NCBI GenBank assembly: GCA_963796105.1
Contig: CAWCKJ010000002.1
Coordinates: 128,001 to 192,000, forward strand
Origin: a candidate division FCPU426 bacterium
Lineage (GTDB): Bacteria > Oederibacteriota > Muellerivitia > Muellerivitales > Muellerivitaceae
Direction of reading: 5' to 3'
DNA: 64,000 nucleotides
Within the stretch, counting starts at the first letter, position 1; each line of letters starts with the position of its first letter. A program made the translations under genes and the position numbers. The notes under the pieces were generated by a model that saw nothing but the letters and a program-made list of their open reading frames with translations, was not told the origin of the DNA and did no database searches. Positions 24,096 to 58,000 of the stretch are shown here, piece by piece.

Positions 24096-25195
24096 TTTTT
24101 TGAGAGGGCGTTGGCGGCGATGGTTGCCGTATAGAGGACAGTCACCACTATGGCTAGTTCACCCAGGGTGGGCCAGGGATTTTTGGGGACATAAATAATA
24201 TCCCCCGGGTAAACCAAAGGCCCATCCTGGTGATAATTCTTGTCGTTCAAAAGACGGCCCAAGTCGGCTTTGATTTTCTTGCTTCCGTGAGTAATGAGCA
24301 CTCCTCCTAAGTCGGCGTCGGGCATGGGGCCGTTAGCCAGGGCCACCATGTTCACCAGGTTTGGCTGTCCCCGGATCATGTATTGTCCCGGCCTGACGAC
24401 GTCCCCCAGAACTGAGATGTTATAGGTATTAGTCTGCGTGATAAGCACTGTGACTTGCGGGAATTTCATGTAGGGCCTGAGTTTTTTCATGAGAAAGGTC
24501 CCTGCCTTGTTGGGAGCTAGACCCGAGAGCTTGACCATGCCCACAAAGGGGAAAAGGATGCATCCATCGGTATCCACCATATAGTCCGTGGGAAGCGCGG
24601 AATTCTGGTTGGAGGCCTGGCCTGAACCTCCGCCGCTTGGGGAAAGGCCCGCCCCTGAGATCTGGTGCTCATAACCCACCACGTTGATGGTGAGAAGGTC
24701 CCCTGGGCCGATCAGGAGGGGAGGGTATTTGGCGGCTTCTTCCTTAGGCATGGCGCCAATTTTATGTTTGGAAATTGGCACACCCAAGGCTCGCTTCTCG
24801 GCTTGAGACCTCGAAGCAGGGGATTTTTTCACTACAGTTTTCTTAACTTTTTTCTTGTCTTTATGGGTCTTGATAGCGGATTCGACACGTTTTGTTTGCT
24901 CACCGTTCGCTGGGGTAGGGGTACCAATTTCTTTTTTGGAAATTGGCACACCCAAAGCTTGCCCCTCAACTTGAGATTTCGGGGCAGGGGTCTGCGCGAA
25001 AGCGGAAGGGGATATCATTAATAAGGAAAGGACGAGAGCGGTCGAGCGCTTGAAAAAAGAGAAATGAAAAATGGACAATGAACAATAAACAATAAAAGCA
25101 AAGGCGGAAAAGGTATTTCCCTTTAATTTAAAATTTTGAGTTTTAAATTTTGAATTGTCTTTAAGATGTAGGCGTCGAGAGGCGTTTAGTTTCAT
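24092..25195 (-). CDS. wza: Wza/OPX polysaccharide export protein
   Basis: LIGPGDLLTINV, VDTDG.I.FPFVG.V, VLGDVVRPG SLBB, PGDIIYVP; C-terminal hydrophobic helix. Confidence 0.85.
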   Translation of the reverse strand: MKLNASRRLHLKDNSKFKTQNFKLKGNTFSAFAFIVYCSLSIFHFSFFKRSTALVLSLLMISPSAFAQTPAPKSQVEGQALGVPISKKEIGTPTPANGEQTKRVESAIKTHKDKKKVKKTVVKKSPASRSQAEKRALGVPISKHKIGAMPKEEAAKYPPLLIGPGDLLTINVVGYEHQISGAGLSPSGGGSGQASNQNSALPTDYMVDTDGCILFPFVGMVKLSGLAPNKAGTFLMKKLRPYMKFPQVTVLITQTNTYNISVLGDVVRPGQYMIRGQPNLVNMVALANGPMPDADLGGVLITHGSKKIKADLGRLLNDKNYHQDGPLVYPGDIIYVPKNPWPTLGELAIVVTVLYTATIAANALSKK

Positions 25196-25338: not shown

Positions 25339-25875
25339 TTAACAAACACGATAGGCTGCCTTTGGCTCTTCAAGAAAACCAATCCGATGTTTGGGTTTCT
25401 CCGGTGTTTTCATCAGCTCTCGAATAGCGTTAAATACACCCTGGATTTGGGAATCGTGGACCCCCACTTTCTTTTCCAAATCATCAAGTTTTCGGGCCAG
25501 GTCTTTATGTGTGGACAAAACCTGGCGAAGGCGTACAAAGGCACGCATAATCTCAATATTCACTCGTACGGCCTTCTTGCTCCTTAAAACACTGGAAAGC
25601 ATAGCCACACCTTGCTCCGTGAAAACCCTAGGTAATTTGCGAGTGCCACCCCAACTTGATGTTCCATTCTGGAACATCAAGTTTTCGAACTCGATTTTAT
25701 TAATGAAAAACGAGAAATCATCGGGAAACCGATCCTTGTTCCTGGTAACAGCTTTGTTTAAATTCCGCGTTTCAACGCCATACAATTGAGCCAAATCACT
25801 ATCCAGCATGACCTTTCGTCCCCGGATCAAATGAATTTTTTTCTCGATACCGGAAACCGGGATTAATTCGGCCAT
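25339..25875 (-). CDS. ORF6N-domain DNA-binding protein
   Basis: IRGRKVMLDSDLAQLYGVET..LN.AV.RN..RFP.DF, FTEQGVAMLSSVL.S, IMRAFV, C-terminal RIGF. Confidence 0.92.
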   Translation of the reverse strand: MAELIPVSGIEKKIHLIRGRKVMLDSDLAQLYGVETRNLNKAVTRNKDRFPDDFSFFINKIEFENLMFQNGTSSWGGTRKLPRVFTEQGVAMLSSVLRSKKAVRVNIEIMRAFVRLRQVLSTHKDLARKLDDLEKKVGVHDSQIQGVFNAIRELMKTPEKPKHRIGFLEEPKAAYRVC

Positions 25876-25910
25876 AAGCGGTCCTTTTTCAAGAACACTT
25901 CACACACAAA

Positions 25911-25937
25911 GGGGTCAGGCTTACATTTTACACTTTA
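25911..25937 (+). repeat. Solo copy of the tyrosine-transposase TIR
   Basis: GGGGTCAGGCTTACATTTTACACTTTA, one mismatch to 31088-31114. Confidence 0.9.
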
Positions 25938-25949
25938 GGCTAAAACCCT

Positions 25950-26760
25950 TCTCACCACAGGTTCCTGCGGAACCACAGAGTACACGGTAAAGCGTCCTCT
26001 TGGGTACGGCTAAAAACATCAAAACAACAACTTCATCTCACCACATGCCAGCCCTCCATAAAACTAATAGGGGGCTGGTATCGTACCAATCTCCACATAT
26101 GCTTAAAGGAAGATTGGCACAGGGACTCATGCCGAACCACCGTAAGGCTTTAAAGGAAAGTTCGGTACAGATTTACTATAAATCTGCCCCGGCAATCCTC
26201 TCACTCGGCTGGTAGCCTCATGCGGCCTGTATAGCACCGATTTCATTAACTGATTTATGGAAAATCGGCGCAGAGACTCAGCTAAAACAACCATCTTTTA
26301 CCACAGGTTTCTTCGAAACCACAGAGTACACGGTAAAGCGTCCTCTTGGGTACGGCTAAAACATCAAAACAACTACGTCATCTCACCACAGTTGTGCTTC
26401 GCACAGCACAGAGACTCAGCTACTACTTTTGCCACGGATGTAACGATCAACCATAAAAACATATAGAGAGATCGGCACTATACCAGCCCCCGTATCAGCC
26501 TTATGGAAGGCTGGCATGCATGGGATACATGGGATTTTAAGCAACTTCAGATCGTGACAAGAGCTTTGCTCTTGCGCCCGTTGGGCTTTATGGCGCATCC
26601 GCAGGCCTCGGAAAAATGGATTTTCCCGGTGGCCGTCGGTTCCGCCATAGTACACGATCAATAACCAAGGCTTCATTTAAAACTTAGAATTCAAAACTCA
26701 AAATTCATTCTGTAAAGAATGCCTTGCCCATCCCCCTGCATCCCCTGAATCCCAGCTAAA
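25950..26760. repeat. Nested hairpin-repeat cluster 1
   Basis: CCACAGGTT..AACCACAG scaffold units; twin-hairpin elements at 26046-26121 and 26441-26518; 143-bp composite at 26130-26272; 110-bp element at 26550-26659. Confidence 0.85.
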
Positions 26761-26792
26761 ACTCAGTTATTAACTGTTATCGTACGCACAAA

Positions 26793-26841
26793 GGGGTCAG
26801 TGGTTCGAGAACCTCACCATCCGCAGGCATTTTACACTTTA
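26793..26841 (+). repeat. Interrupted solo TIR copy
   Basis: GGGGTCAG [tggttcgagaacctcaccatccgcagg] CATTTTACACTTTA; the insert resembles the REP-like hairpin at 1115-1133. Confidence 0.75.
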
Positions 26842-26936
26842 GCTAATTTTTTATAACTATCGGTAAACCAATGGGTATTCCTACATGAAGGCCGGAATTA
26901 TAGCATAACCATCTTGGAAATGACGTGAAAACCTTA

Positions 26937-27922
26937 CATGCTTCTGTATTAAGTGACCCTTGAAATAAAGGAATACATAGGTATACTGTCCGCTACGGGA
27001 GGTGGTACATGAGCTACCAGCGGATGAAAAGCATTAAAATTCTGAGGAAAATCCACACGGAAGAAGAAGCCCGCCAATGGGTGTGGAGATGCCGTTTCGG
27101 CGGGAAAGACTTTGTTTGTCCCCAATGTGAGGGCGAAAGCTTCTGGCAACACCAGGCCAAGCCTGAAGTGAGGGAATGTGACTATTGCCGGAAACGTCTT
27201 CGGCTTCGCGCCGGGACGATTTTTGAAAGCTCCAAGCTGCCTCTTTTAACCTGGGTCAGGGCCATCAGTTTGATGATGCAGGGCAAACGGGGTATTTCGG
27301 CCCTGGAACTGAAGCGGCATTTAAATCTTTCGGATCATTCGGCATGGCTTCTATTGCATAAGATCCGGGAAGGTCTTAGGCAAAAGGACGAAAGCTATAC
27401 TCTAAAGGGCGTCATTGAGTTGGATGGGGCGGTTTTTGGGAAAAAGGCCAAGGAAAACCAAGTGGAAGTCTTGGTGGCGGTGGAAAGCAAGGAATGGGTG
27501 GATGAGAATGGTTGCAAGAAGGAAAAAGCGGGTTTTGCCAAGGTGAAGGTAGCTATGGAAACCAAGTGGGAGAGCCAGGAATTCGTGAATCAGACTATGG
27601 AAAAAGGCTCTTTCCTCAACACAGATGCTTCGCCAGCCTTGCGTGAACTCAAAGGAGTGGAGGCAGACTACCGGGTGATGGCCAATGACCCGAAAGAGTT
27701 GGAAAGTTGGTTGCCCTGGGTACACCGGTTCATTTCCAACGCCAAGGCCTGGATCATTGGAACTCATCATGGCGTTGATGCTAAGTATTTAGGCCGGTAT
27801 CTAAGTGAATATGCCTATCGGTTCAACCGTCGTCATGATCCCGATTCCTTATTTCACCGTGCTTTGACCGCATGTGCCTTAGCAAAACCCATTACAGCAC
27901 GGTCACTTTGTGCATAAGCATA
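26937..27922 (+). mobile_element. IS1595-family insertion sequence, apparently intact
   Basis: Imperfect TIRs ATGCTTCTGTATTAAGTGACC and GGTCACTTTGTGCATAAGCAT (17/21 match); flanked by 8-bp direct repeat AAACCTTA (26929-26936, 27923-27930). Confidence 0.92.
27009..27917 (+). CDS. tnp: IS1595 (ISXO2-like) DDE transposase
   Basis: Zn ribbon CPQC...CDYC, AGTIF..SKLPL, IELDG, NTD, GTHHGV..KYL..YL.E..YRFNRR. Confidence 0.95.
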   Translation: MSYQRMKSIKILRKIHTEEEARQWVWRCRFGGKDFVCPQCEGESFWQHQAKPEVRECDYCRKRLRLRAGTIFESSKLPLLTWVRAISLMMQGKRGISALELKRHLNLSDHSAWLLLHKIREGLRQKDESYTLKGVIELDGAVFGKKAKENQVEVLVAVESKEWVDENGCKKEKAGFAKVKVAMETKWESQEFVNQTMEKGSFLNTDASPALRELKGVEADYRVMANDPKELESWLPWVHRFISNAKAWIIGTHHGVDAKYLGRYLSEYAYRFNRRHDPDSLFHRALTACALAKPITARSLCA

Positions 27923-28191
27923 AAACCTTATGTTAACTGTTTAACTTTTCTCCCTTCTTTACATTTTTAAGAGTAAAATTCAAGCCATGGGGGGATTTCC
28001 AGAGGGTGTTTTCAGGTCTTTGGGATATGAGATTGACGCCATCAAATGGACGTCGGATTAAGCCTTACTCCTAATTCCTAATTTCTTTTCAGCGGTTCTT
28101 AACTCCTAACCCCGCCATGAAAGCGCCGCCGATACCCCCGGCGTCCGCTTCAGGGTCCTCATTTTTAATGCCTAACTGCTCTTGAGGGGGG

Positions 28192-28593
28192 TTATTTCTT
28201 TTTGCGGGGGCGGGTTTTTGATTTGGATTTACTCACCTTGTATTCAGCGTGGGGTTCTTGAAGACCTGGCGGCAGTATGTTTTGGAGCTTCTGTTTTAAA
28301 ACCGGAAGATCCTTTACCGTTACTCCCCAAACAACTTCAAGGTCTACTTGGAAATAATCATGGACCAGTATATGCCGCATTCCCTGGATGGCATCCCATG
28401 GTACCTCGGAATGTTTATTCCGGAATTCAGGGGGTACTTTATATGCCGCTTCACCCAAGATTTGGAGATAGTGGAGGATATAAACCTGAATCAATTCGTC
28501 TGCATTGAAGGCTTTGCGGCCCTGCGAAGAATATTTCTCGATCCGATGGATGGCATCAAGCATATCCTGGACCCGATTCAAATGGTCCCTCAT
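28192..28593 (-). CDS. hepT: HepT-like HEPN RNase toxin (DUF86) with basic C-terminal tail
   Basis: LQILGEAA, VPW..I.GMRHILVHDYF (RX4HXY). Confidence 0.9.
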   Translation of the reverse strand: MRDHLNRVQDMLDAIHRIEKYSSQGRKAFNADELIQVYILHYLQILGEAAYKVPPEFRNKHSEVPWDAIQGMRHILVHDYFQVDLEVVWGVTVKDLPVLKQKLQNILPPGLQEPHAEYKVSKSKSKTRPRKKK

Positions 28594-28880
28594 AACCGAA
28601 CGGCCTCCTGAAGGACTCTATCACGGAAGGAATCCCGAAGGCCTTTTTCAGATACGACATCAACCGGACGGCCTAAGAGATGTTCCAGGTCCGTTAAAAG
28701 CCCCCCCATATCCAATAAGGTGCGGCCTGGTTCCATGCGGACGAGAAAATCCACATCACTTCGTTTATCCGAGTCTCCGCGAGCAACTGAGCCAAAAACG
28801 CTTATTTCGCGGGCACCATGGCTGCTGGCAAGTTTAAGGATCTTGTTGCGTTTTTTTTGGAGGATTTGACCGATTGTCAT
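28590..28880 (-). CDS. mntA: MNT minimal nucleotidyltransferase antitoxin
   Basis: VFGSVARGD....SDVDFLV, L...LGRPVDVV. Confidence 0.92.
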   Translation of the reverse strand: MTIGQILQKKRNKILKLASSHGAREISVFGSVARGDSDKRSDVDFLVRMEPGRTLLDMGGLLTDLEHLLGRPVDVVSEKGLRDSFRDRVLQEAVRL

Positions 28881-28883
28881 GTT

Positions 28884-29072
28884 TTATCCCGCTCGGTTAA
28901 CTTGCTGAAGGCCTTCCAGGTAACAAGTAATAGCTTCTTTCGCGTTTTCCAAGGCCTCCTTGATGGTCTCACCTTGGGAGAAGCAACCGTCCAAAGCCGG
29001 GACTCGGACATTGAAACCGCCCTCATCGGCATGTGCCAATCGGACATGAAAATAAATCGGGATTGGTACCAT
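28884..29072 (-). CDS. hicB: Short HicB-like antitoxin (no cognate hicA adjacent)
   Basis: DEGGFNVRVPALDGCFSQGETIKEALENAKEAI; ATG at 29072 preferred to the longer ORF start. Confidence 0.8.
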   Translation of the reverse strand: MVPIPIYFHVRLAHADEGGFNVRVPALDGCFSQGETIKEALENAKEAITCYLEGLQQVNRAG

Positions 29073-29187
29073 ACCAGCCACATTAAAGTTTTGTGGAAGG
29101 CTTGCATGTTCCAGAACAACGTCAAGGGACGACCCATTGGGTCGCCACTTGGCCGGGACATGGTCCCCGGCCAAGTACACGGCTTGT

Positions 29188-29205
29188 CCCCGGCTAAAGC
29201 CGGGG
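29188..29205. repeat. IS200/IS605-type end hairpin remnant
   Basis: CCCCGGCTAAAGCCGGGG followed by CCTGAAGGC resembles IS200/IS605 subterminal palindromes; no tnpA/tnpB/iscB adjacent. Confidence 0.45.
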
Positions 29206-29349
29206 CCTGAAGGCAGCCGGTCAAATTTCATGTTGACACCTTTCTAAAAGGCTTCTGATGGCTTCCATCAATCTGCCTTTGAATTGGAATTATAACCTGG
29301 TAAGACACTCATATGGCCAGGGAACATAAAACAGAAGGGGGTCTCTATT

Positions 29350-29994
29350 TTATGTATTCGGCCCTTTGTTATTCGCTTTTTTGAGAAGTTTTCGATAGAG
29401 ACCGCCAAAAGGGCCTTCCAGGGCGCTTTTCTCGAAATATTCCGCTTCTTCCCTCCAAGTCATGCCTTTAGTCGCCTTGTGGATTTTGCGTTGGATCTCT
29501 TCTTTCATTTTTAAGGCATCGAAACCCTTGATGGGCTTAATTTTTTTAATTTTGCGATGCCGCGTTTTTGGTTTGGGTTTACCTGGTTTATATATGGAAT
29601 GGATTTCGTGGAAGCCGGGTGGATTGAATTCTCCAATAGGTAGACGCCGGATTCGGACATCATCTTTCTCAATAATGATGATGGCGCCATTTATAAGAGG
29701 TTCCTCGATGATTGACCAATTTTTTTCAAGGTTACCGGCCAGGTTAGCGACGGTCATTTTTTGCGTGCGGAATATCACGACTGAAGGCCTGGATTTTCCT
29801 GAAAAAGCCAATATTTTCCCAAAATCCAAATCGTGGGTTAAAAGTACAGAACCCCTTGACTCAGCGAGGGATAAAATAACCTCGTCGCCCGCTTTACTAT
29901 GACCAAGTTTTCCTGAGTGTATGGCTTGATGACCAAGGCGGGCCAAGTGCTGGCAAAGTGATGGGGAAAGGTTGTTATCTAAAAAGAATTTCAT
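29350..29994 (-). CDS. DUF5615 PIN-like toxin with long C-terminal extension
   Basis: MKFFLDNNLS...D..IL..A.....LLTHDLDFG...RIRRLPI, followed by about 90 extra aa. Confidence 0.85.
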   Translation of the reverse strand: MKFFLDNNLSPSLCQHLARLGHQAIHSGKLGHSKAGDEVILSLAESRGSVLLTHDLDFGKILAFSGKSRPSVVIFRTQKMTVANLAGNLEKNWSIIEEPLINGAIIIIEKDDVRIRRLPIGEFNPPGFHEIHSIYKPGKPKPKTRHRKIKKIKPIKGFDALKMKEEIQRKIHKATKGMTWREEAEYFEKSALEGPFGGLYRKLLKKANNKGPNT

Positions 29995-30230
29995 GGACGA
30001 GAAGGTATGAAGCGTTCCTCGGCCTCAAGGGAGCAATAGGCCAGGGCCTGAAGGATGTCCTCTTCCTCGAGTTCGGGCCATTCTTTTAGGATTTGGCGAA
30101 TGGTCATACCACCGCTCATGTAAGCCAATATACTGGCCACCGGCATGCGGTAACCCCGAACGCAGGGTTTCCCGAAACATTTTTCCGGATCGAATGTGAT
30201 TCGCTCAAATTTGTAATGGTGGTGTTCCAT
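29991..30230 (-). CDS. DUF433 antitoxin
   Basis: RITFDP..CFGKPCVRG.RMPV..IL...GGMT...IL..WPELEEEDI..AL.Y. Confidence 0.9.
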   Translation of the reverse strand: MEHHHYKFERITFDPEKCFGKPCVRGYRMPVASILAYMSGGMTIRQILKEWPELEEEDILQALAYCSLEAEERFIPSRP

Positions 30231-30322
30231 AACGCTGCCTTTCAGCGGTAATTATAACATTGGATGGGAATGAATGGTATTCGGCAACTCCTAATTCCGA
30301 ATTGCTAATCGTTCTTTAGGAG

Positions 30323-31084
30323 TTATTTCTTTTTACGGGGCCGCGTTTTTGGTTTTCTTTGCCTTTGCACAGATTTACTATAAATCTGCGCCGATCTACC
30401 GTGAAGAGACATTGAGATCGGTGCAATACCAGCCTCTTTAAAGTTTTTTGGAGGGCTGGCATGCGCCGATCTACCGTGAAGAGACATTGAGATCGGTGCA
30501 ATACCAGCCTCTTTAAAGTTTTTTGGAGGGCTGGCATGCGCCGATCTACCGTGAAGAGACATTGAGATCGGTGCAATACCAGCCTCTTTAAAGTTTTTTG
30601 GAGGGCTGGCATGCGCCGATCTACCGTGAAGAGACATTGAGATCGGTGCAATACCAGCCTCTTTAAAGTTTTTTGGAGGGCTGGCATGCGCCGATCTACC
30701 GTGAAGAGACATTGAGATCGGTGCAATACCAGCCTCTTTAAAGTTTTTTGGAGGGCTGGCATGCGCCGATCTACCGTGAAGAGACATTGAGATCGGTGCA
30801 ATACCAGCCTCTTTAAAGTTTTTTGGAGGGCTGGCATGCGCCGATCTACCGTGAAGAGACATTGAGATCGGTGCAATACCAGCCTCTTTAAAGTTTTTTG
30901 GAGGGCTGGCATGCGCCGATCTACCGTGAAGAGACATTGAGATCGGTGCAATACCAGCCTCTTTAAAGTTTTTTGGAGGGCTGGCATGCGCCGGCAATCT
31001 TCTCCTTCGGCTGGTGGCCTCAGGAGGCCGGTATTCAGCGGGGGATTCGTGGACGGCGCCGCCGGACGGCAGGATTTCCAGAAC
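30323..31084 (-). pseudogene. 3' remnant of a HepT-like gene, split by the repeat array and truncated by the transposase TIR
   Basis: 31084-31031 reads VLEILPSGGAVHESPAEY and 30369-30323 reads ...QRKPKTRPRKKK*, mirroring LQNILPPGLQEPHAEYKVSKSKSKTRPRKKK* of 28192..28593. Confidence 0.7.
30387..30986 (-). repeat. Perfect tandem array, 8 x 75 bp, twin-hairpin unit
   Basis: Identical units tgcgccgatct-accgtgaagagacattg-agatcggtgc-aa-taccagcctctttaaagttttttggagggctggca, period 75 bp. Confidence 0.97.
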
Positions 31085-31087
31085 AAA

Positions 31088-32102
31088 GGGGTCAGGCCTA
31101 CATTTTACACTTTACAAATAATTCGCCATTTTTAGAATATGCTTATGCCAAGACCCAGGCGAATTCATTATGAGGGGGCTGTTTACCACGTGACCTCCCG
31201 AGGGAACGAGCGGCGCGAGATTGTCAAGACCGACTCGGACCGATGGATGTTTTACAGACTATTGGGGGAAATGATCGAGGAAAATAAGGTGCTTTGCCAC
31301 GCCTGGGTACTGATGAACAACCATTACCATCTCTTGCTGGAGACGCCCGCAGCCAATCTTTCCATCGCGATGAAGCATTTAAACAGTATTTATACCCAGC
31401 GTTTTAATAAAAAATATCAAAGGGCCGGCCATTTATTCCAGGGGCGGTTCAAGGCCATTGTGGTTGAGAAGGATAGCTACTTGAAAGAGTTATGCCGGTA
31501 TGTGGTTTTGAATCCCGTGAGGGCGAAGGCGGTCAAGGCTCCGGGGGATTGGAAGTGGAGCAGTTACCGCGCGACTGCCGGCCTGGAAAAGGGGGAACCG
31601 TGGCTGGAAACGGATTGGATTCTCAGTCAGTTCGGAAGTACCCTCAATGAGGCACGGAAAAGCTATCGGGCTTTTGTGGCTGGCGGAATCGGGAGCAAGG
31701 TTTCCCCCTGGGAAGAACTTTATTCCCGCGTATATTTGGGAAAAGAGAAATTTTTGATCAAGGTGCATGAGGCGGGGCGAAAGCATAGGCATTTGGATGT
31801 CCCGAAGTACCAGAAACAAGTGGTGAAGGCTGACCCGGAAAAGATTCTCGGGAAAATCGCCGAAGTCTATGGGGGAAAACCCGAGGAGATTTTGCAAGCC
31901 GGAAGAAGGGGGATGGATTCCCGGGACGCGGCGATCTATTTGCTGAAGAGGGAAGCGGGGCTAAGTTTGAGGGAGATCGGCAAAAGGATGGGAGTGGGTT
32001 TTTCGGCGGTTGGGAACCAATGGACCAGGATCAAGAAGAGGATGCCGGTGGACCGGGAATTCGCCAAAAAAGTGCTAAAGTGTAAAATGTAGGCCTGACC
32101 CC
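31088..32102 (+). mobile_element. TIR-flanked Y1 tyrosine-transposase element (TIRYT/RAYT-like)
   Basis: Perfect 27-bp inverted repeats GGGGTCAGGCCTACATTTTACACTTTA (31088-31114) and its reverse complement (32076-32102); the transposase stop codon lies in the right TIR. Confidence 0.9.
31139..32092 (+). CDS. HUH/Y1 (REP-associated-type) tyrosine transposase with C-terminal DnaA-like HTH
   Basis: YHVTSRGN, LMNNHYHLL (HUH), GHLFQGRFKA, YVVLNPVRA, WKWSSY; C-terminal RDAAIYL...GLSL.EIG..MG. Confidence 0.93.
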   Translation: MLMPRPRRIHYEGAVYHVTSRGNERREIVKTDSDRWMFYRLLGEMIEENKVLCHAWVLMNNHYHLLLETPAANLSIAMKHLNSIYTQRFNKKYQRAGHLFQGRFKAIVVEKDSYLKELCRYVVLNPVRAKAVKAPGDWKWSSYRATAGLEKGEPWLETDWILSQFGSTLNEARKSYRAFVAGGIGSKVSPWEELYSRVYLGKEKFLIKVHEAGRKHRHLDVPKYQKQVVKADPEKILGKIAEVYGGKPEEILQAGRRGMDSRDAAIYLLKREAGLSLREIGKRMGVGFSAVGNQWTRIKKRMPVDREFAKKVLKCKM

Positions 32103-32135
32103 ATTGTGGTGTGGGGGGAATGGAGGTTTAAATTG

Positions 32136-32873
32136 ATGGATTTAATCAAGGGGGCGGTGAGGCGCTTGGCGGGGCTTTTCGGGCTGGAGGTCAGGCTCGC
32201 GCCGACCAGGACCGGGGAATACGGGAACGTGTTCGCCCGCGCGATCTACAATCCCTGGAACCTGGACAAGGCCTTCCAGGAGGTTTACGCCTCCCTGGGG
32301 CCCGCCACGGTGGTGGACGAGTACTGCTGTTACGAGCTCTGGAAGCTGGTGGAGCAAAGCGCGAAGCTGAGGGAGGGGTGCCTCATCGAGGCCGGGGTCT
32401 GGCGCGGGGGGTCCGCCGCCCTCATCGCCCGGCAGGCCAGGAATTGCGGGATCAAGGACAAGGTCTATCTCTGCGACAACTTCAAGGGGGCGGTCAAGAC
32501 AGGGGAAAAGGACACCTATTACAAGGGCGGGGAATTCACCGCCAACAGGCTGGAGCCGGAGGAACTGATCTTCAAAAAGATGGGGTTGGACAACGCCGAG
32601 ATACTGGAGGGCATCTTCCCCGAGGAGACGGGGCACAGGGTCAAGGACCTGAAATTCCGGTTCTGCCACATCGACATCGGGGTTTACCAGGCGGAGAAGG
32701 ACATCGCGGACTGGATCTGGGAAAGGATGGTTCCCGGGGGGATGGTGGTCTTCGGCTGTTACGGCTTCAAGGGGTGCGAGGGGACCACGAGGTACGTGAA
32801 CGAGCGGATGGACAGGCCGGACAGGCTGGTGATCCAGAACCTCAACGGCCATGCGATATTCGTGAAGATTTGA
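32136..32873 (+). CDS. TylF/MycF/NovP-family O-methyltransferase
   Basis: EAGVWRGGS, LCDNFKG, GIFPEET, FCHIDI, GG...F..YG; ATG at 32136 follows a GGAGG RBS. Confidence 0.85.
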   Translation: MDLIKGAVRRLAGLFGLEVRLAPTRTGEYGNVFARAIYNPWNLDKAFQEVYASLGPATVVDEYCCYELWKLVEQSAKLREGCLIEAGVWRGGSAALIARQARNCGIKDKVYLCDNFKGAVKTGEKDTYYKGGEFTANRLEPEELIFKKMGLDNAEILEGIFPEETGHRVKDLKFRFCHIDIGVYQAEKDIADWIWERMVPGGMVVFGCYGFKGCEGTTRYVNERMDRPDRLVIQNLNGHAIFVKI

Positions 32874-32904
32874 TAAGGAAAATTAAAACTTAAACAACTT
32901 CAAT

Positions 32905-34005
32905 TTCACCACAGGTTTCTTCGAAACCACATGCCGAACCTCATTTAAGCATTCAATGAAAGTTCGGTACAGATTTACTATAAATCTGCCCCTGCAATCC
33001 TCTCACTCGGCTGGTAGCCTCATGCGGCCTGTATAGCACCGATTTCTTTAACTGCTTTATGGTGAATCGGCGCAGAGTACACGGTAAAACATTCTCTTGG
33101 GTACAGCTAAAACATCAAAACAACTACGTCATCTCACCACATGCCAGCCCGCCATAAAACTAATAGGGTGGCTGGTATCATACCAATCTCCACATATGCT
33201 TAAAGGAAGATTGGCACAGGGACTCAGCTACTTCAACAACATTTAACCACAGGTTCCTGCGGAACCACATGCCGAACCTCATTTAAGCATTCAATGAAAG
33301 TTCGGTACAGATTTACTATAAATCTGCCCCTGCAATCCTCTCACTCGGCTGGTAGCCTCATGCGGCCTGTATAGCACCGATTTCTTTAACCGCTTTATGG
33401 TGAATCGGCGCAGAGTACACGGTAAAACATTCTCTTGGGTACAGCTAAAACATCAAAACAACTACGTCATCTCACCATCCCACTATGCTCTATGAGCTTC
33501 GATGGACAGGCAGCTTCAGATCGTGACAAGAGCATGGCTCTTGCGCCCTGCGGTCTTTATGGCGCATCCAAAGGCCTCGGAAAAATGGATTTTCCCGAAG
33601 GCCGTCGGTTACGCCATAGTACACGATCTATACATAACCTCTAACCTCTGAAAAAGTCGGCCATCGCCTCCTTTTTCAGAAAACAAATTATGGAAACCCC
33701 ACGATTTCCTGCGGAAATCTTTGGGGTCGAAACCTCTGTTGGCCGCTTTTAATAGTTTTTCAGAGGTTTCAACCTTTTAAATCTTCTACTGTGATGCGTT
33801 AGCACTGTGGTTCCCGTAGGAACCTGTACCGATCATCCATAAAAATTTAGAGAGATCGGCACTATACCAGCCCCCATATCAGCCTTATGGAAGGCTGGCA
33901 TGTGGTTAATCTGTTTATCCCCTGCATCCCCTGAATCCCAGCTAAGATACTTTTTTTTCCTGTGTTGCGTTAGCACTGTGGTTCTGTAAGAACCCGTGGT
34001 GAATC
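32905..34005. repeat. Nested hairpin-repeat cluster 2
   Basis: 143-bp composites at 32932-33074 and 33270-33412; twin-hairpin elements at 33142-33218 and 33827-33902; 110-bp element at 33519-33628; TIR-bounded segment at 33643-33768. Confidence 0.85.
33643..33768. mobile_element. Putative MITE
   Basis: 13-bp terminal inverted repeat AACCTCTGAAAAA...TTTTTCAGAGGTT, internal hairpins, no ORF. Confidence 0.5.
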
Positions 34006-34095
34006 CGGGCATTGGCGGAAACCTTTGTTCCCCCAGTGGAAAGTTGTACAATGATTTTGATGGTTTTGGTGGTTGAAAATCGGAAAGGGGAAGCC

Positions 34096-34302
34096 ATGCG
34101 ACAAGTTCTTATTTACCCAGGAGAAGACGGTTATTGGGTGGCTGAATGTCCCAGCCTTCCGGGCTGTATTAGCCAAGGAAAGACACGGGAAAAAGCGATT
34201 CAAAACATCAAGGAAGCCATTGAAGGTTATATCGCCTCATTGAAAGACGACCATATCAGCATTCCCAAGGAACATTTCGAGGCCATGTTAGTAGCCATAT
34301 GA
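34096..34302 (+). CDS. hicB: HicB antitoxin
   Basis: EDGYWVAECPSLPGCISQGKTREKAIQNIKEAIEGY. Confidence 0.9.
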   Translation: MRQVLIYPGEDGYWVAECPSLPGCISQGKTREKAIQNIKEAIEGYIASLKDDHISIPKEHFEAMLVAI

Positions 34303-34520
34303 GTAAACTCCCCCGTTTATCGGGAAGGGAATGCGTTCAGGCACTTTCCAAAGTCGGCTATGTTTTTGTCCGGCAACATTCTTCCCATATCATCCTCCGC
34401 CGTAAAGAACCCTTTTCACAATTGACAGTGCCGGACCACAAGGAATTGGACCGAGGCACACTCCGCGCGATCATCCGGCAAGCTGGTTTGCAGGTGGAGG
34501 GTTTTACAAAATTATCATAA
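34299..34520 (+). CDS. hicA: HicA toxin
   Basis: LSGRE..QAL.K.G..FVRQ.SSHI.L...LTVPDHKELDRGTLRAII. Confidence 0.9.
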   Translation: MSKLPRLSGRECVQALSKVGYVFVRQHSSHIILRRKEPFSQLTVPDHKELDRGTLRAIIRQAGLQVEGFTKLS

Positions 34521-34647
34521 AAACCGTGTCTTAAAATCTGCTTCTTCGCCGCCAACCTGCCTTGATTAGTTCTGCGGACTATCGATTGCACTGCCACTCG
34601 AAGCGTTGGGTGCGGACTGCTTTATACAAGTTTTGGTTTGGAGATGA

Positions 34648-35964
34648 ATGAATAAGGCCCAAAACACCGCCGCGGGGTTCCTTGTAAAGTCCCTCGCGAG
34701 CCTGCTATCCAAGAAGCAGATGCTCAACAAGGCCGCCCTGATGACGGGGGCCAAGGTCCTGGGCATGGGCATCGGGGCGGCGGGAACCATCTACGCGGCC
34801 AGGTGCCTGGGGCCCCGCAGCCTGGGACTGTCGGGAATGGTCCAGAACATCGCGGGGCAGGGCATGCTCGCCACGGAATTCATCTCCACCACGGTCCTGA
34901 TCCGCGAGTACAAGAACGCCAGGGACGCCGGGGACAGGGACAGGATCGTCCAGGCCGCCAACGGCTTTTGGCTCCTGCCGGGCCTGGTTTTCTCGGTCCT
35001 GGCGGCGTTGTTCTTGATCCTCAAATGGGTCCCAGGCGATTACCAGACCGCCGGCTGGTTTTTCATTCCCTTGATCCTCCTGAGTTCCGTCCAGCCGGAT
35101 TGGATCTTCCAGGCGGAGGAGAAACAGCAACACCAGTCGCTTTTCGCGCTCATCCAGCCCCTGCTGATGACGGGCCTCTACCTCATCTGGTTCAAGCCGG
35201 GCGCGCAGGCCAGCGCCGATTTGTTCGTGAAATCCTCGGCGGCGGCGGTGATGTTCTTTGTTTACTGGCGGGGAATTTTCAAGCTTAGCTCCCTCAAGGG
35301 GTTCTTCATCCGGATCGATTTTTTCAGGGACATGAGGGACCTGGTCCTGAAATCCCGCTGGCTTTTCATTTCAGCAATCGCCGTTTACGTCTACAGCACC
35401 CTGGAACAGCCCCTTTTGGGCTGGCTTTTCTCGGTGGAGGAGCTCGGGAAATACCGCACAGCCTCCTCCGCGACGAACGCGGCCTGCTCCTTTTTCAACC
35501 TGATCCCCCTCATCCTTTACCCGAGGTTCATCGAGTGGCGGAAAAGGGGGGAAGAGGTCCTTTGGGTGAGGCAGTTGAAGCTCACGGCGCTTTTCTCGGC
35601 GGGCGGGGGCATCCTGGCCCTGGGAGGGTTTTGGCTGATCCCGCTTCTTTACCCCTACGTCTTCGGGCCTTCCTTCGCGGGAGCGGCGGTGCCCTGCGCC
35701 CTGCTGCTTCTATCGGAAATCATCGTGGTCATCAGCGGGCTCTTCAGCTGGGGCTTGTTGACGGACCACACCTACGACAAATTCGTGTCCTCCACCCTGA
35801 TCGGCACGGCGGTTTTCTCCCTCGCGACGAACCTTTTGTTCATCCCGAGGTTCGGGATGATGGGGGCGGCGCTGGTGCATTTGGCGAGCGAGATTCTGAT
35901 ATTGGGGGTGTTCTTCGGGCTGGCTTACAGGAGAATCGGGAACATTAGGAAGAAACAGGTTTGA
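34648..35964 (+). CDS. Second Wzx-like oligosaccharide flippase
   Basis: AR.LGP...G, WIFQ..EK, LLG......LG.Y, LIP.FG..GAA; multi-TM. Confidence 0.82.
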   Translation: MNKAQNTAAGFLVKSLASLLSKKQMLNKAALMTGAKVLGMGIGAAGTIYAARCLGPRSLGLSGMVQNIAGQGMLATEFISTTVLIREYKNARDAGDRDRIVQAANGFWLLPGLVFSVLAALFLILKWVPGDYQTAGWFFIPLILLSSVQPDWIFQAEEKQQHQSLFALIQPLLMTGLYLIWFKPGAQASADLFVKSSAAAVMFFVYWRGIFKLSSLKGFFIRIDFFRDMRDLVLKSRWLFISAIAVYVYSTLEQPLLGWLFSVEELGKYRTASSATNAACSFFNLIPLILYPRFIEWRKRGEEVLWVRQLKLTALFSAGGGILALGGFWLIPLLYPYVFGPSFAGAAVPCALLLLSEIIVVISGLFSWGLLTDHTYDKFVSSTLIGTAVFSLATNLLFIPRFGMMGAALVHLASEILILGVFFGLAYRRIGNIRKKQV

Positions 35965-35971
35965 AGAAATT

Positions 35972-36213
35972 CTTTTCTTTTTTTGTCCCCATCATTCAAA
36001 CCCTCATTTAAACAATGGGGTTTCGTTATAAAATGTATTTATTGCTGGCTCGCTCCACACATTCCCCTGTGGGTTTCTAGTTATCTGAACTTGCGAATTT
36101 CCTTTTAATATTCCTAGCGATAAGGCCTAGAGGGCTCCCCTTACGCTTATATGAGTTGATCCTTTATGCCGCTTGGGTGGGGTTTTCATGAAGGGGACGG
36201 GGTTTTTTAAAAC
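35972..36213. repeat. ~240-bp structured non-coding repeat, copy 1 (copy 2 at 39709-39952)
   Basis: Shared blocks CCCCAT..ATGGGG, CGCTCCACACATTCCCCTGTGGGTTTCT, TAGAGGG.TCCCCTT.CGCT and TTCATGAAGGGG.CGGGGTTTT. Confidence 0.8.
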
Positions 36214-36344
36214 AAAAGCAAACCTTACCTTGCGGCCTACGAGACTTTGATACTGGGGGGGGTGTTCTTCGGGCTGGCTTACAGGAGAATCGGGAAAATA
36301 CGTAGAAAAATATAATTTTGAATTGAAGGAAAAAACCACATATC

Positions 36345-36850
36345 AACACAGGTTCTTTCAGAACCACAGCAACAACCTTGATTTAATACGGCTAAAAAAT
36401 ATCAAAAGCAACAACTTCAACATTTAACCACAGGTTCTTTCAGAACCACAGTAACATCCTCAATTTGGTACGGCTAAAAACATCAAAACAACAACATCAT
36501 CTCACCACAGGTTTCTTCGAAACCACATGCCGAACCTCATTTAAGCATTCAATGAAAGTTCGGTACAGATTTACTATAAATCTGCCCCGGCAATTCTCTC
36601 ACTCGGCTGGTAGCCTCATGCGGCCTGTATAGCACCGATTTCCTTAACCGATTTATGGAAAATCGGCGCAGAGACTCAGCTAAAACATTCTATGGGTTGC
36701 GGCTAAAAACATCAAAACAACAACATCATCTCACCACGGGTTCCCGCGGAACCACAGCAACAACCTCGATTTAAAACGGCTAAAAAATATCAAAAGCAAC
36801 AACTACAGATAACCCCTTACCAAGGCACGGGTTTCTTCGAAACCACAGTA
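36345..36850. repeat. Nested hairpin-repeat cluster 3: about five ~80-bp scaffold units, one carrying the 143-bp composite (36528-36670)
   Basis: Recurring CAC(A/G)GGTTYY-N3-RRAACCACAG ... CGGCTAAAAA(C/AT)ATCAAAA(G)CAACAAC. Confidence 0.85.
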
Positions 36851-36914
36851 AGACAAACATATTCCGGTTTACCACAGGGTTTTTTTAACGCAAATGCAAA
36901 CCGGCATTTAAAAT

Positions 36915-37205
36915 TTATTTTGATTTTGGGGATAAATCCATGGCGCCGTGGACAACAGCCAAGACATCTATTTGATCGGATTTAATCCGGTAAAAAATGC
37001 GGTAGGGGCCTTCTATGACTTCTCGTATTTGATCCGCGTCAAACTCCGGTACTCTGCGGCCGGATGTGGGAAAATCGGCAATTTGTTTGGACCTGCCGGT
37101 AAGGCGATCGACCATCCGTTTAGCGTAATCCGCTGAATCCCGAGCGATATGGGCGTGGAGCGCGTTGAGATGGTCTTCAGCCGAGTGAGTCCAACGGACC
37201 CTCAT
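36915..37205 (-). CDS. RelE/ParE-family toxin
   Basis: VRWT..A...L..L...IA.DS...A, FP.SGR.VPE, RE.I...YRI.Y, VLAVVHG. Confidence 0.9.
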   Translation of the reverse strand: MRVRWTHSAEDHLNALHAHIARDSADYAKRMVDRLTGRSKQIADFPTSGRRVPEFDADQIREVIEGPYRIFYRIKSDQIDVLAVVHGAMDLSPKSK

Positions 37206-55067: not shown

Positions 55068-58000
55068 ATGAATCAATTGATTAAATTGAATCGGATATTT
55101 TTAATCACGGTGCTTTTGCTTTTCCCTGCGGCGATTACGCTCGCCGACTTCAACCTGGGCATCATCTCGGCAATAAAAAATGAGCTGAAGTTCAAGCCGG
55201 AAGCAACTCCCCCGACCCCAACCCCGACCAATTTCGGGGGCTACACCAGCACCCCGACCGACACCCCCATGCCTACCTTGACTGACACCCCTACTTACAC
55301 GTTGACGGAAACTTCGACCGAAACGCACACCAAAACCCCGACGCTCACTAACACCTCCACCGACACATTCACAAAAACACCCACTCCTACGCTGACGGCG
55401 TCAAATACTCCTACGGACACGATGACGCCGACTTCATCCTTTACTGCCACACCCACCGCCACGGCAACCCCGACGCCTACCGCCACCTCCACCTTTACAT
55501 TCACTCATACCCCAACCAATACTCCTGCGGTTACAAACACTCCTACTGACACAATGACGCCCACCTTAACGGATACGACTACGCCGACACCGTCGGCTAC
55601 GTCCACCGCTACGGCAACGCCGACCTATACCAACACGTTTACAAACACATTAACGCCCTCGAACACAATAACGAATACCCCGACTGTCACCAATACGCCA
55701 ACGACCACCGATACCCCGACTAACACACCGACCGTTACAAACACACCCACCAACTCGCCTACGGTCACGAACACTCCGACTCAAACCCCGACTATCACGA
55801 ACACCCCTACCAACACACCGACCATTACGAACACGCCCACCAATACGCCAACGACCACCGATACCCCGACTAACACACCGACCGTTACAAACACACCCAC
55901 CAACTCGCCTACGGTCACGAACACTCCGACTCAAACCCCGACTATCACGAACACCCCTACCAACACACCGACCATTACGAACACGCCCACCAATACGCCA
56001 ACGACCACCGATACCCCGACTAACACACCGACCGTTACAAACACACCCACCAACTCGCCTACGGTCACCAATACCTCGACTCAAACCCCGACTATCACGA
56101 ACACCCCTACCAACACACCGACTATCACCAATACCCCAACTAACACACCGACCATTACAAACACACCCACCAACTCGCCTACGATCGCAAACACTTCGAC
56201 TCAAACCCCGACTATCACGAACACCCCTACCAACACACCGACTATCACCAATACCCCAACTAACACACCGACCATTACAAACACACCCACCAACTCGCCT
56301 ACGGTCACAAACACTTCGACTCAAACCCCGACTATCACGAACACCTCTACCAACACACCAACTATTACTAACACGCCCACCAACACGCCAACGACCACCA
56401 ATACCCCGACTAACACACCAACCATTACCAACACGCCAACGATCACCAATACCCCGACTAACACACCGACCGTTACAAACACAACCACCAACTCGCCTAC
56501 GGTCACAAACACTTCGACTCAAACCCCGACTATCACAAAAACCCCTACCAACACACCGACTATTACAAACACGTCTACAAATACCGTAACTAATACTCCG
56601 ACAGCCACTCCCACCTATACGAACACTTCCACTTACACCTACAGCTACACCCAAACGGCGACGGATACGACTACGCCGACACCGTCGGCTACGCTCACCG
56701 CAACGCCAACGCTGACCGATACCAGTACATCAACAAATGCTCCTACGGATACGCCCACGAACCTGGGAGGATATACAAGTACGCCAACTGACACTCCCAC
56801 GCCTACCCCGACCAATTTCGGGGGCTACACCAGCACCCCGACAAACACCCAGACTCCAACGGATACCCAAACCGACACTACAACCAATACTCCAACGAGT
56901 ACTTCCACGAACACTTTGATACCCACGGATACTCCTTCCAATTCGCCAACGAATTCAACCACCGCGACGCCTACAACTACTAACACCTTCACGCCCTCCA
57001 GCACAAATACCTCCTCAAACACCTCGACTCCAACCGCGACTTCTACTTCCACGACAACAGCCACGAACTCGCCCACCAATACATTTACCATTACTCCTTC
57101 ACCCACGGTCACGAGCACTCCGACGGTCACCTATTCGCCCACGAATACCTTCACGCCGACGAATACTTCCACGCCGACGCCGGATCCTTATGTCATCACG
57201 GGAACAGCGCAATACACTGGACCCAACAATACCTCAGGGAAATATCTGCTGGTGTGGGCAACCACCAACCTCAACGGAAACGGCAACTCGGCGTCCGTGG
57301 CGTTGACACCTTCCGCCAGCCCCATTCCATACACGCTTAATCTTCCCGGACCGGGGAATTACATCGTTCTGGCTTTCTTGACGAGCTCGCAAAATTTCAA
57401 TAACGGGGGGCCGTCCGCTGGCGACCCCTATATGATTTACGGCGGAACCACCAACGCCTGTCTTACATCCGGAACGCCTACAACCCTAGTATTTGCCGCG
57501 CCGGGGCCCTCGACGCAAACCGCCAACCTGAGTTTCGACAACGGGTGCATGATATACGGAGTTTCAGGGCCCATTACCTTCACCGGAACCGGCGCTGTCA
57601 ACGGGCACAATTCTTTGTACGTCCAGGGGTATATTGATCAGAATTACTTGACCCCGGTGAGCGGAGGGTCCAAATCGGCTACGGTGAATGGGGGCACTTA
57701 CAGCGTGTTGAGTCTGTCCGGGGCCGCTTCGATCTGGCTCCAGGCCTATTACGATCAATCTGGAAACGGGGGCAACGGGCCGGCGACCTGCGATCCCGTG
57801 ACGAACTGGGGGCCTGTGTCGGTGGGAAATACAGCTGTCTCGAATTACGGGATTACCTTGACCAGCCAAAACCTATACAACTGCAATAGCAGTTTATCCG
57901 GGCTCGTCTATTATTCAGGAATCGGGTCTGTCGGGCCGTCACATCCCATCGTGATCAGGGCCGTTACCTGCTCAGGAAACGGGGGATGCAATACTATCGC

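Follow-up and report, generated by a model that had tools for sequence, protein, structure and literature searches.

The locus and its two repeat elements

We analysed a 64,000-nt stretch of DNA, referred to below as the window (G000:C2:128001-192000, where G000 is the source genome; other G numbers denote relatives and L numbers denote loci). It harbors copies of two gene-less repeats, a twin-hairpin element of about 75 bases (TH) and a 64-bp module (M), which are found inserted into each other. The region around them is a polysaccharide locus that also holds toxin-antitoxin genes, a transposase of IS1595 and a Y1 transposase that has a DnaA_C tail. An Rfam search of positions 25500-37200 returned a single chance match (E 0.32) and no known RNA family.

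The palindrome of M, CAGATTTACTATAAATCTG, occurs exactly five times in the window (at 26168, 30370, 32970, 33308 and 36566). Four of the M copies reside in the linkers of 143-bp composites on the plus strand, as had been claimed in a reading made from the sequence alone (the sequence-only reading). Composite 1 (26129-26271) comprises a 79-bp TH and a 64-bp M and is inserted at C^A (the caret marks the junction). Its M (26166-26229) interrupts the TH linker at G^TA. The other three are located at 32931-33073 (M at 32968-33031), 33269-33411 (M at 33306-33369) and 36527-36669 (M at 36564-36627). The fifth copy displays the reversed order, likewise recognized earlier at 30370-31033. Here the left part of M (30368-30387, plus strand; YA and the palindrome as far as the T^G cut point) and its right part (30988-31031, plus strand) enclose eight identical head-to-tail 75-bp TH units (8/8; 30388-30987, minus strand), which sit at a C^A of M's minus strand.

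This split M in turn interrupts the remnant of the 3' tail of a HEPN/HepT-type gene (30289-30367 and 31032-31081, both on the minus strand), the right part of which ends at a TIRYT repeat. The earlier assignment of a HepT-like remnant stands. Once M is removed, the remnant can be aligned with the window's HepT gene over its 3' tail and the DNA downstream, at a score of 129 (the maximum of 300 shuffles is 85, and the tail of a DUF5615 gene scores 87). In G011 and G072 the HEPN/HepT tails are intact and continue across its G^TA point. Only the Lys-rich tail of the gene remains. This part falls outside the Pfam HepT domain (which spans residues 11-106), carries a frameshift and extends no farther than the TIRYT repeat at 31083. 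A protein comparison of its 18 residues yielded no match.

Boundaries, copies and insertion sites of the module

The boundaries of M could be fixed because the relative G072 (L140/L217) contains five perfect 64-bp units arranged head to tail, and because empty host sites are available. M starts with YA, two bases ahead of the palindrome, and ends with the last G, so that the copy in composite 1 extends over 26166-26229 and the split copy over 30368-30387 and 30988-31031. Thus, the length of 64 bp proposed previously was correct, whereas both ends had been placed 2 bp too far to the right. With the corrected boundaries the few-base ambiguity formerly seen at the junction in the HepT remnant disappears, and the target is G^TA.

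A profile search of G000 revealed M at 16 loci: eight in or beside a TH linker (one of them partial), one at 30368 of the window and seven solo. Among the 30 other genomes of the family, a pattern search detected M in four, and further solo copies are present in G001, G072 and G075. M has also inserted in tandem arrays and beside other copies of M; in G001, M lies within a short tandem array whose neighbouring units show the empty junction. The empty TH linker reads GG^TATA (eight matches). The insertion point is G^Y in 21 of the 26 copies with clear flanks, and matching flanks are absent in 17 of these 26; the insertion involves no duplication. A scan of a genome collection produced 13 matches, of which 12 look like chance or coding sequence and one (L027) is real; a metagenome scan produced none.

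M shares the stem-base motif GYAC...GCRC with hairpin 2 of TH, and as a circle the copy from the 30368 locus is predicted to fold stably (z -6.9/-7.7). A third element, which combines a stem similar to that of TH hairpin 2 with the inner arm of M, is found in the window (24756-24822 and 24924-24990) and elsewhere in the genome (G000:C3:535357 and C4:697018). It lies in frame in a polysaccharide export gene and suggests a wider superfamily.

Anatomy and distribution of the twin-hairpin element

TH has the layout X^Y-TG-hairpin1-TA-L3-N-L5-YA-hairpin2-CR-X^Y, its ends being imperfect inverted repeats. The profile search of G000 gave 197 matches, 172 of them 60 nt or longer, distributed over 141 loci. 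These loci are almost all intergenic, with 7 of 141 flagged inside long open reading frames (ORFs). The TH pattern was detected in 15 of the 30 other family genomes and in none of 68 genomes from other families of the phylum; as a control, the reversed pattern had no matches in all 99 genomes. A viral scan likewise gave no matches and a metagenome scan gave one.

Besides the copies described above, the window contains an uninterrupted TH (26045-26120, plus strand) with a CA core and a TATCGTA linker, a variant (26440-26517, minus strand) in which G.T replaces A.C at the base of hairpin 2, and a copy (29033-29107, minus strand) in the 5' part of a HicB-like ORF (28884-29231), the frame of which stays open despite it. 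The first stem-base pairs are in general conserved non-Watson-Crick pairs (110 and 98 of 117 copies for the two hairpins) that switch between A.C and G.T. As circles, TH copies are predicted to fold into dumbbells (z -3.9 to -5.1).

The flanking dinucleotides agree in 83 of 85 strict TH copies. Empty hosts with a single CA, TA or CG are represented by 13, 6 and 20 exact copies, respectively. The targets have only these two bases in common; there is no extended consensus, merely a weak upstream Y-R preference, and the sites show strong CA-over-TG polarity. The empty 14-mer recurs elsewhere in the genome for 20 of 38 distinct TH sites versus 112 of 600 control CA sites, that is, TH inserts in many other repeats. 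Hairpin stems as such are not enriched among the targets, as both bases are paired at 8 of 38 sites compared with 205 of 600 controls.

TH also forms arrays of seven to eight units, including perfect head-to-tail ones. The seven-unit array at G000:C2:112810-113344 mixes two sequence variants, unlike the perfect eight-unit arrays. A 75-bp unit identical to that of the window array is present as a 105-nt cyclic contig in each of the three soil sequencing runs compared (3/3), which shows that it exists in other samples in a tandem or circular form, the two being indistinguishable in such data.

The flanking core covaries with a putative central guide

Comparison of TH copies revealed that L3 is the complement of Y and L5 the complement of X, so that the linker TA-L3-N-L5-YA carries a putative guide for the flanking core. 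For the count in G000 we kept 117 of the 197 matches (distinct, near full length and with stems at least 5/6 paired). Core and guide agree in 107 of them (95 CA, 9 CG and 3 TA). When relatives were included, 169 copies were cut to 118 by removal of tandem-internal and duplicate sites, and 109 of the 118 agree. An alignment containing two rows in reverse orientation was left out of the counts. The central N is free (C in 51, A in 38, T in 22 and G in 6 of 117 copies). An extension of the guide pairing to position -1 is suggestive only (p=0.057).

A TH tree was built from 133 distinct copies of up to 84 nt with the guide masked. Read directly from the tree, CG-core copies fall into at least two groups, and up to four, that supported branches separate.

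In a linear fold, the inner core bases alone pair with the guide, and the outer ones are unpaired and yet covary. In a circle fold, the two core copies merge into one, which pairs with L5 and L3 around the bulged N. Three of five mismatched insertions, L092 and G000:C4:499471 (both CA...CG) and L039:1917 (TA...CA), bear on the position of the cut. In each of them the inner bases match the guide, whereas the outer ones are those of the target; such chimeric cores are what a cut between X and Y would leave. Several further mismatched copies are decayed.

Reciprocal nesting and the origin of the composites

TH occupies the same C^A site on the minus strand of M at six loci. Two are in G000, namely 30388 in the window with eight units and C2:120582-121187 with eight units of another TH subtype; the other four are in G001 (L101/L215, L213, L099/L216 and the degenerate L165), and in two of these four M has been entered by a second TH at a different C^A. 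The TH copies involved in the six loci come from at least two lineages. The region surrounding the second G000 locus (L016, G000:C2:120535-121206) displays three levels of nesting, TH containing M containing eight TH units, followed by more tandem TH copies.

In the opposite direction, seven copies of M inside TH form one supported clade that spans three TH subtypes, and the G001 composite L005 and the copy at 30368 of the window fall outside it. Because these seven copies represent a single clade, the four composites of the window are not four events and probably stem from one M insertion. M thus entered TH once or twice. Later it was either carried along as a passenger or moved from one TH copy to another, and the 143-bp composite seems to have dispersed as a whole to different C^A sites. 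An uninterrupted TH of the same subtype and with the same flanks as composite 1 is present at G000:C2:63815 and provides the empty-linker allele.

The mutual nesting is real but not exclusive. That both types move independently, as proposed before, is supported by this uninterrupted TH and by the solo M copies and empty sites described above, although to say that the two target each other was an overstatement, as TH enters many other repeats and M is also found in tandem arrays. The possibility that the nesting is an artefact of parsing a series of alternating single hairpins was ruled out: both TH and M are found on their own, have empty sites and form separate arrays.

Two observations concern the surroundings of the composites. 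The composites of the window lie in mosaic blocks (25954-26390, 32903-33479 and 36331-36870) built of ACCACAGG-type hairpins and AAAACAACA-rich repeats, which are themselves repeated. In G001, ORFs that by eye resemble IS110 transposases adjoin two of the three TH::M composites (L007 and L009).

Neighbouring genes and other features

Immediately to the right of the HepT remnant lies a TIRYT/TIRtron element (31083-32107, plus strand) with a Y1_Tnp and Bac_DnaA_C protein (ORF 31139-32092). It was assigned by its GGGGTCAG inverted repeats, following PMC3733652 (section 16) and PMC6006769. We consider this element a neighbour and a candidate trans-acting enzyme source for TH and M. Other TIRYT proteins of G000 are encoded at C2:98747, C7:96204 and C12:329355. 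Lone or miniature TIRYT ends broken by small hairpins are seen in the window (25906-25937 and 26788-26851), in G001 (L005, L007 and L009) and at L139, and some of the hairpins within them host TH or TH::M.

The IS1595 transposase occupies 27009-27917. Its related ORFs form k-mer clusters with about 31 and 25 members, amid many other multi-copy IS-like ORFs. Unrelated toxin-antitoxin and ORF6N genes (28192-28593, 29350-29994 and 25339-25875) have in common a C-terminal tail that is Lys-rich and/or contains E-x-x-A-x-Y. Farther away, at 55200-56850, there is a long coding tract of Thr-Pro repeats with a 30-bp period.

Proposed mechanism and alternative explanations

We regard TH and M as two genuine, undescribed families of mini-elements that function in the manner of repetitive extragenic palindromic (REP) elements and bacterial interspersed mosaic elements (BIMEs). 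As to how they move, we lean, by a modest degree, towards small single-stranded DNA (ssDNA) dumbbell circles that are cut and rejoined in trans by an HUH nuclease (Y1, similar to TnpA-REP). In the circle, the XY core would pair with the T-N-G guide, leaving N bulged out, and the cut would fall between X and Y. The guide would select a matching target, and guide mutants would retarget the element from CA to CG or TA. For M, the cut would be at G^Y, with less strict pairing and no duplication. Eight-unit arrays could result from rolling-circle-like or repeated self-insertion, and mutual nesting would follow from the presence of C^A sites in M and of G^TA in the TH linker, which are two among many targets.

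Several observations weigh against this reading. TH copies are kin, and Fisher p-values for the core-guide covariation are therefore overstated; the TA-core class may be a single event. Two mismatched copies (G000:C4:1347907 and L054) do not fit an X^Y cut, and the counts of G.T versus A.C (68 vs 48, p=0.08) do not identify the active strand. M of the composite type folds weakly as a circle (z -1.5/-3.5). The soil data are contigs, in which neither a free circle nor excision is observed. A survey of the neighbours at the 141 TH loci disclosed no consistent gene. The tetranucleotide of TH, A-T-N-G, also differs from that of the REP elements served by REP-associated tyrosine transposases (RAYTs), and TH has no GTAG/GTGG/CGTC foot.

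The search for the enzyme adds to the same side of the balance. G000 has 16 Y1_Tnp matches; the Y1 genes examined (Y1_Tnp, NF047646) are TIRYT or IS200, none with TH terminal repeats, and the ends of the two IS200-type genes are unrelated to TH. Across the 31 family genomes covered by the Y1 and GIY-YIG searches, none of 30 Y1 loci matches the central motif of TH, and the presence of Y1 does not track that of TH (13/16 vs 9/15 genomes, p=0.25). A search for reverse transcriptases gave no matches, and neither did one for Y2, the control of which was equally silent. The single IS110 match, the 36 Phage_integrase matches and the two resolvase matches in G000 could not be linked to TH or M, nor could any of the ORFs between paired TH copies. 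No autonomous insertion sequence with TH ends was seen among the matches listed for unpaired ends in G000, nor beside TH in relatives. Overall, no enzyme was linked to TH or M in any of these searches, and a cognate transposase was not found.

GIY-YIG loci have one TH within 1.5 kb in 3 of 31 cases and no M. One of the loci is L173, where TH lies among GTCATT-type repeats flanking a gene similar to Ssn. In family genomes, GTCATTGCGAG-type repeats (CGTC class) border small GIY-YIG genes that are Ssn-like at L169, L170, L173, L176, L181 and L185, which makes the products of these genes candidate enzymes for the GTCATTGCGAG-type repeat class.

A more far-reaching version of the dumbbell reading, possible in our view but doubtful, is that TH and M constitute an undescribed class of gene-less 60-80-nt dumbbell elements, with a two-base guide of their own, natural retargeting, rolling-circle amplification and an enzyme outside the known RAYT and IS200 groups, which in this lineage form a community of mutually nesting parasites.

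Other explanations place the chemistry elsewhere. The dumbbell might be the folded single-stranded substrate of a tyrosine recombinase, as attC is for the integron integrase, with inverted arms, a 6/7-nt overlap, one extrahelical base and exchange of one strand. The tandem junction of TH does have inverted arms around a 6-bp centre, with a 1-nt bulge and conserved mismatches in the opposite strand, and Phage_integrase matches are numerous in G000. However, the TH consensus lacks GTTRRRY/RYYYAAC boxes, cassette ORFs are missing around TH, and the targets share just two bases, which makes this explanation unlikely.

Alternatively, there may be no present mobilisation at all. Old insertions would have been multiplied by slippage, template switching and repeat recombination, the covariation reflecting hairpin correction or selection on RNA structure. 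The location of composites within larger repeated blocks, the single clade of M copies in TH, the ability of arrays to grow by slippage and the intergenic position of TH all agree with this scenario. What makes it quite unlikely is that the outer core bases, unpaired in the linear fold, nevertheless change with the guide, and that precise filled and empty pairs are found in unrelated hosts, with TH dispersed over 141 loci.

It might also be argued that TH is an ordinary MITE (a miniature transposable element bounded by inverted repeats), in which the terminal inverted repeats are imperfect (TGCC-N4-TTCCATAA) and the 2-bp YR duplication is the work of a DDE transposase, M being a separate MITE. 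The matching 2-bp flanks, the imperfect inverted repeats at the ends and the richness of the genome in multi-copy IS-like ORFs (k-mer clustering) are in line with it. Yet nothing in a DDE duplication would account for internal bases that follow the flank, or for the strong CA-over-TG polarity; the chimeric cores fit a cut in the middle of the dinucleotide, M lacks matching flanks in most copies with clear flanks, and no full-length partner with TH ends is among the matches listed. We regard a MITE origin as very unlikely. Finally, the exchange of double-stranded circles at a matching 2-bp core by a serine recombinase (IS607-like) or an IS110 enzyme would suit the circle junction, palindromic about the 2-bp core, the identity of element and target cores, and the few resolvase and IS110 matches in G000, but it is the least probable of all, as it leaves the core-linker pairing, the chimeric cores and the unmatched core of M unexplained, and TH targets have no extended consensus.

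Comparison with known systems

The systems nearest to TH are REP, BIME and REPIN elements with their TnpA-REP (RAYT) enzymes, in particular the group 3 Marinomonas REP-Mb (PMC8266576, PMC3333891 and PMC3116915). According to these papers, TnpA-REP cuts C^T, and excision of single-stranded BIME circles followed by rolling amplification has been proposed (PMC3333891); the CA at which TnpA-Mb cuts is selected by the bases T2 and G4 in a tetranucleotide that precedes the palindrome by 2 nt, and guide mutation retargets the enzyme (PMC8266576); REPINs insert into or beside each other (PMC3116915). The REP papers cited here leave the mechanism of dissemination open and report guide-directed cleavage in vitro only. 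Like REP and BIME elements, TH is an intergenic, high-copy hairpin doublet that forms tandem arrays and inserts into or beside its own kind. As in REP-Mb, its likely cut is at C^A, which seems to be selected by positions 2 and 4 in a tetranucleotide located 2 nt 5' of the palindrome. Unlike in REP and BIME elements, a single guide in the centre is used for the two ends of a tail-to-tail heterodimer with sharp boundaries, natural retargeted variants (CG and TA) exist, and there is a second family, M, with another cut rule. Moreover, no RAYT gene flanked by TH was found in searches of the Y1 loci of the family. By analogy, HUH chemistry on ssDNA would be the closest match to TH.

TH also resembles non-autonomous IS200/IS605 derivatives, the guide-target pairing of which is set out in PMC8266576, in its two hairpins, element-encoded guide and putative single-stranded circle. 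It differs from them in the length of the target (2 nt vs 4-5 nt) and in having the same core at both ends. Nesting of REPs in other palindromes is one-way in PMC3733652 (section 7), a section that describes no guide-core covariation. TH and M resemble such nested REPs in being inserted at fixed positions in other repeats. The same is reportedly true of the small dispersed repeats of cyanobacteria discussed by Elhai et al. in 2008.

The attC sites of integrons carry RYYYAAC/GTTRRRY boxes and are associated with cassette ORFs; neither feature is present in the TH consensus or its context, with no search for IntI having been made. Unlike in a DDE-type MITE, the flank of TH covaries with internal bases, and the flanks of M are unmatched in 17 of 26 copies. 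Ssn nucleases process SRM/NTS hairpin repeats as ssDNA, and the accessible text of PMC11893778 describes nuclease and no joining activity. Ssn-like genes are present in the family as well, but the repeats on either side of them are of the GTCATTGCGAG type, which serves TH as a host, and are neither TH nor M.

A literature search, which covered few subscription journals and no supplements of the cited papers, found no description of TH or M and none of core-guide covariation; the range of journals was too narrow to prove novelty. TH offers a natural record of an apparently REP-like rule, with sharp boundaries, filled and empty sites, guide mutants located at the new target that the rule predicts, and mismatched insertions that would place the cut. 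At the same time it provides a defined 75-nt substrate with a short list of candidate enzymes.

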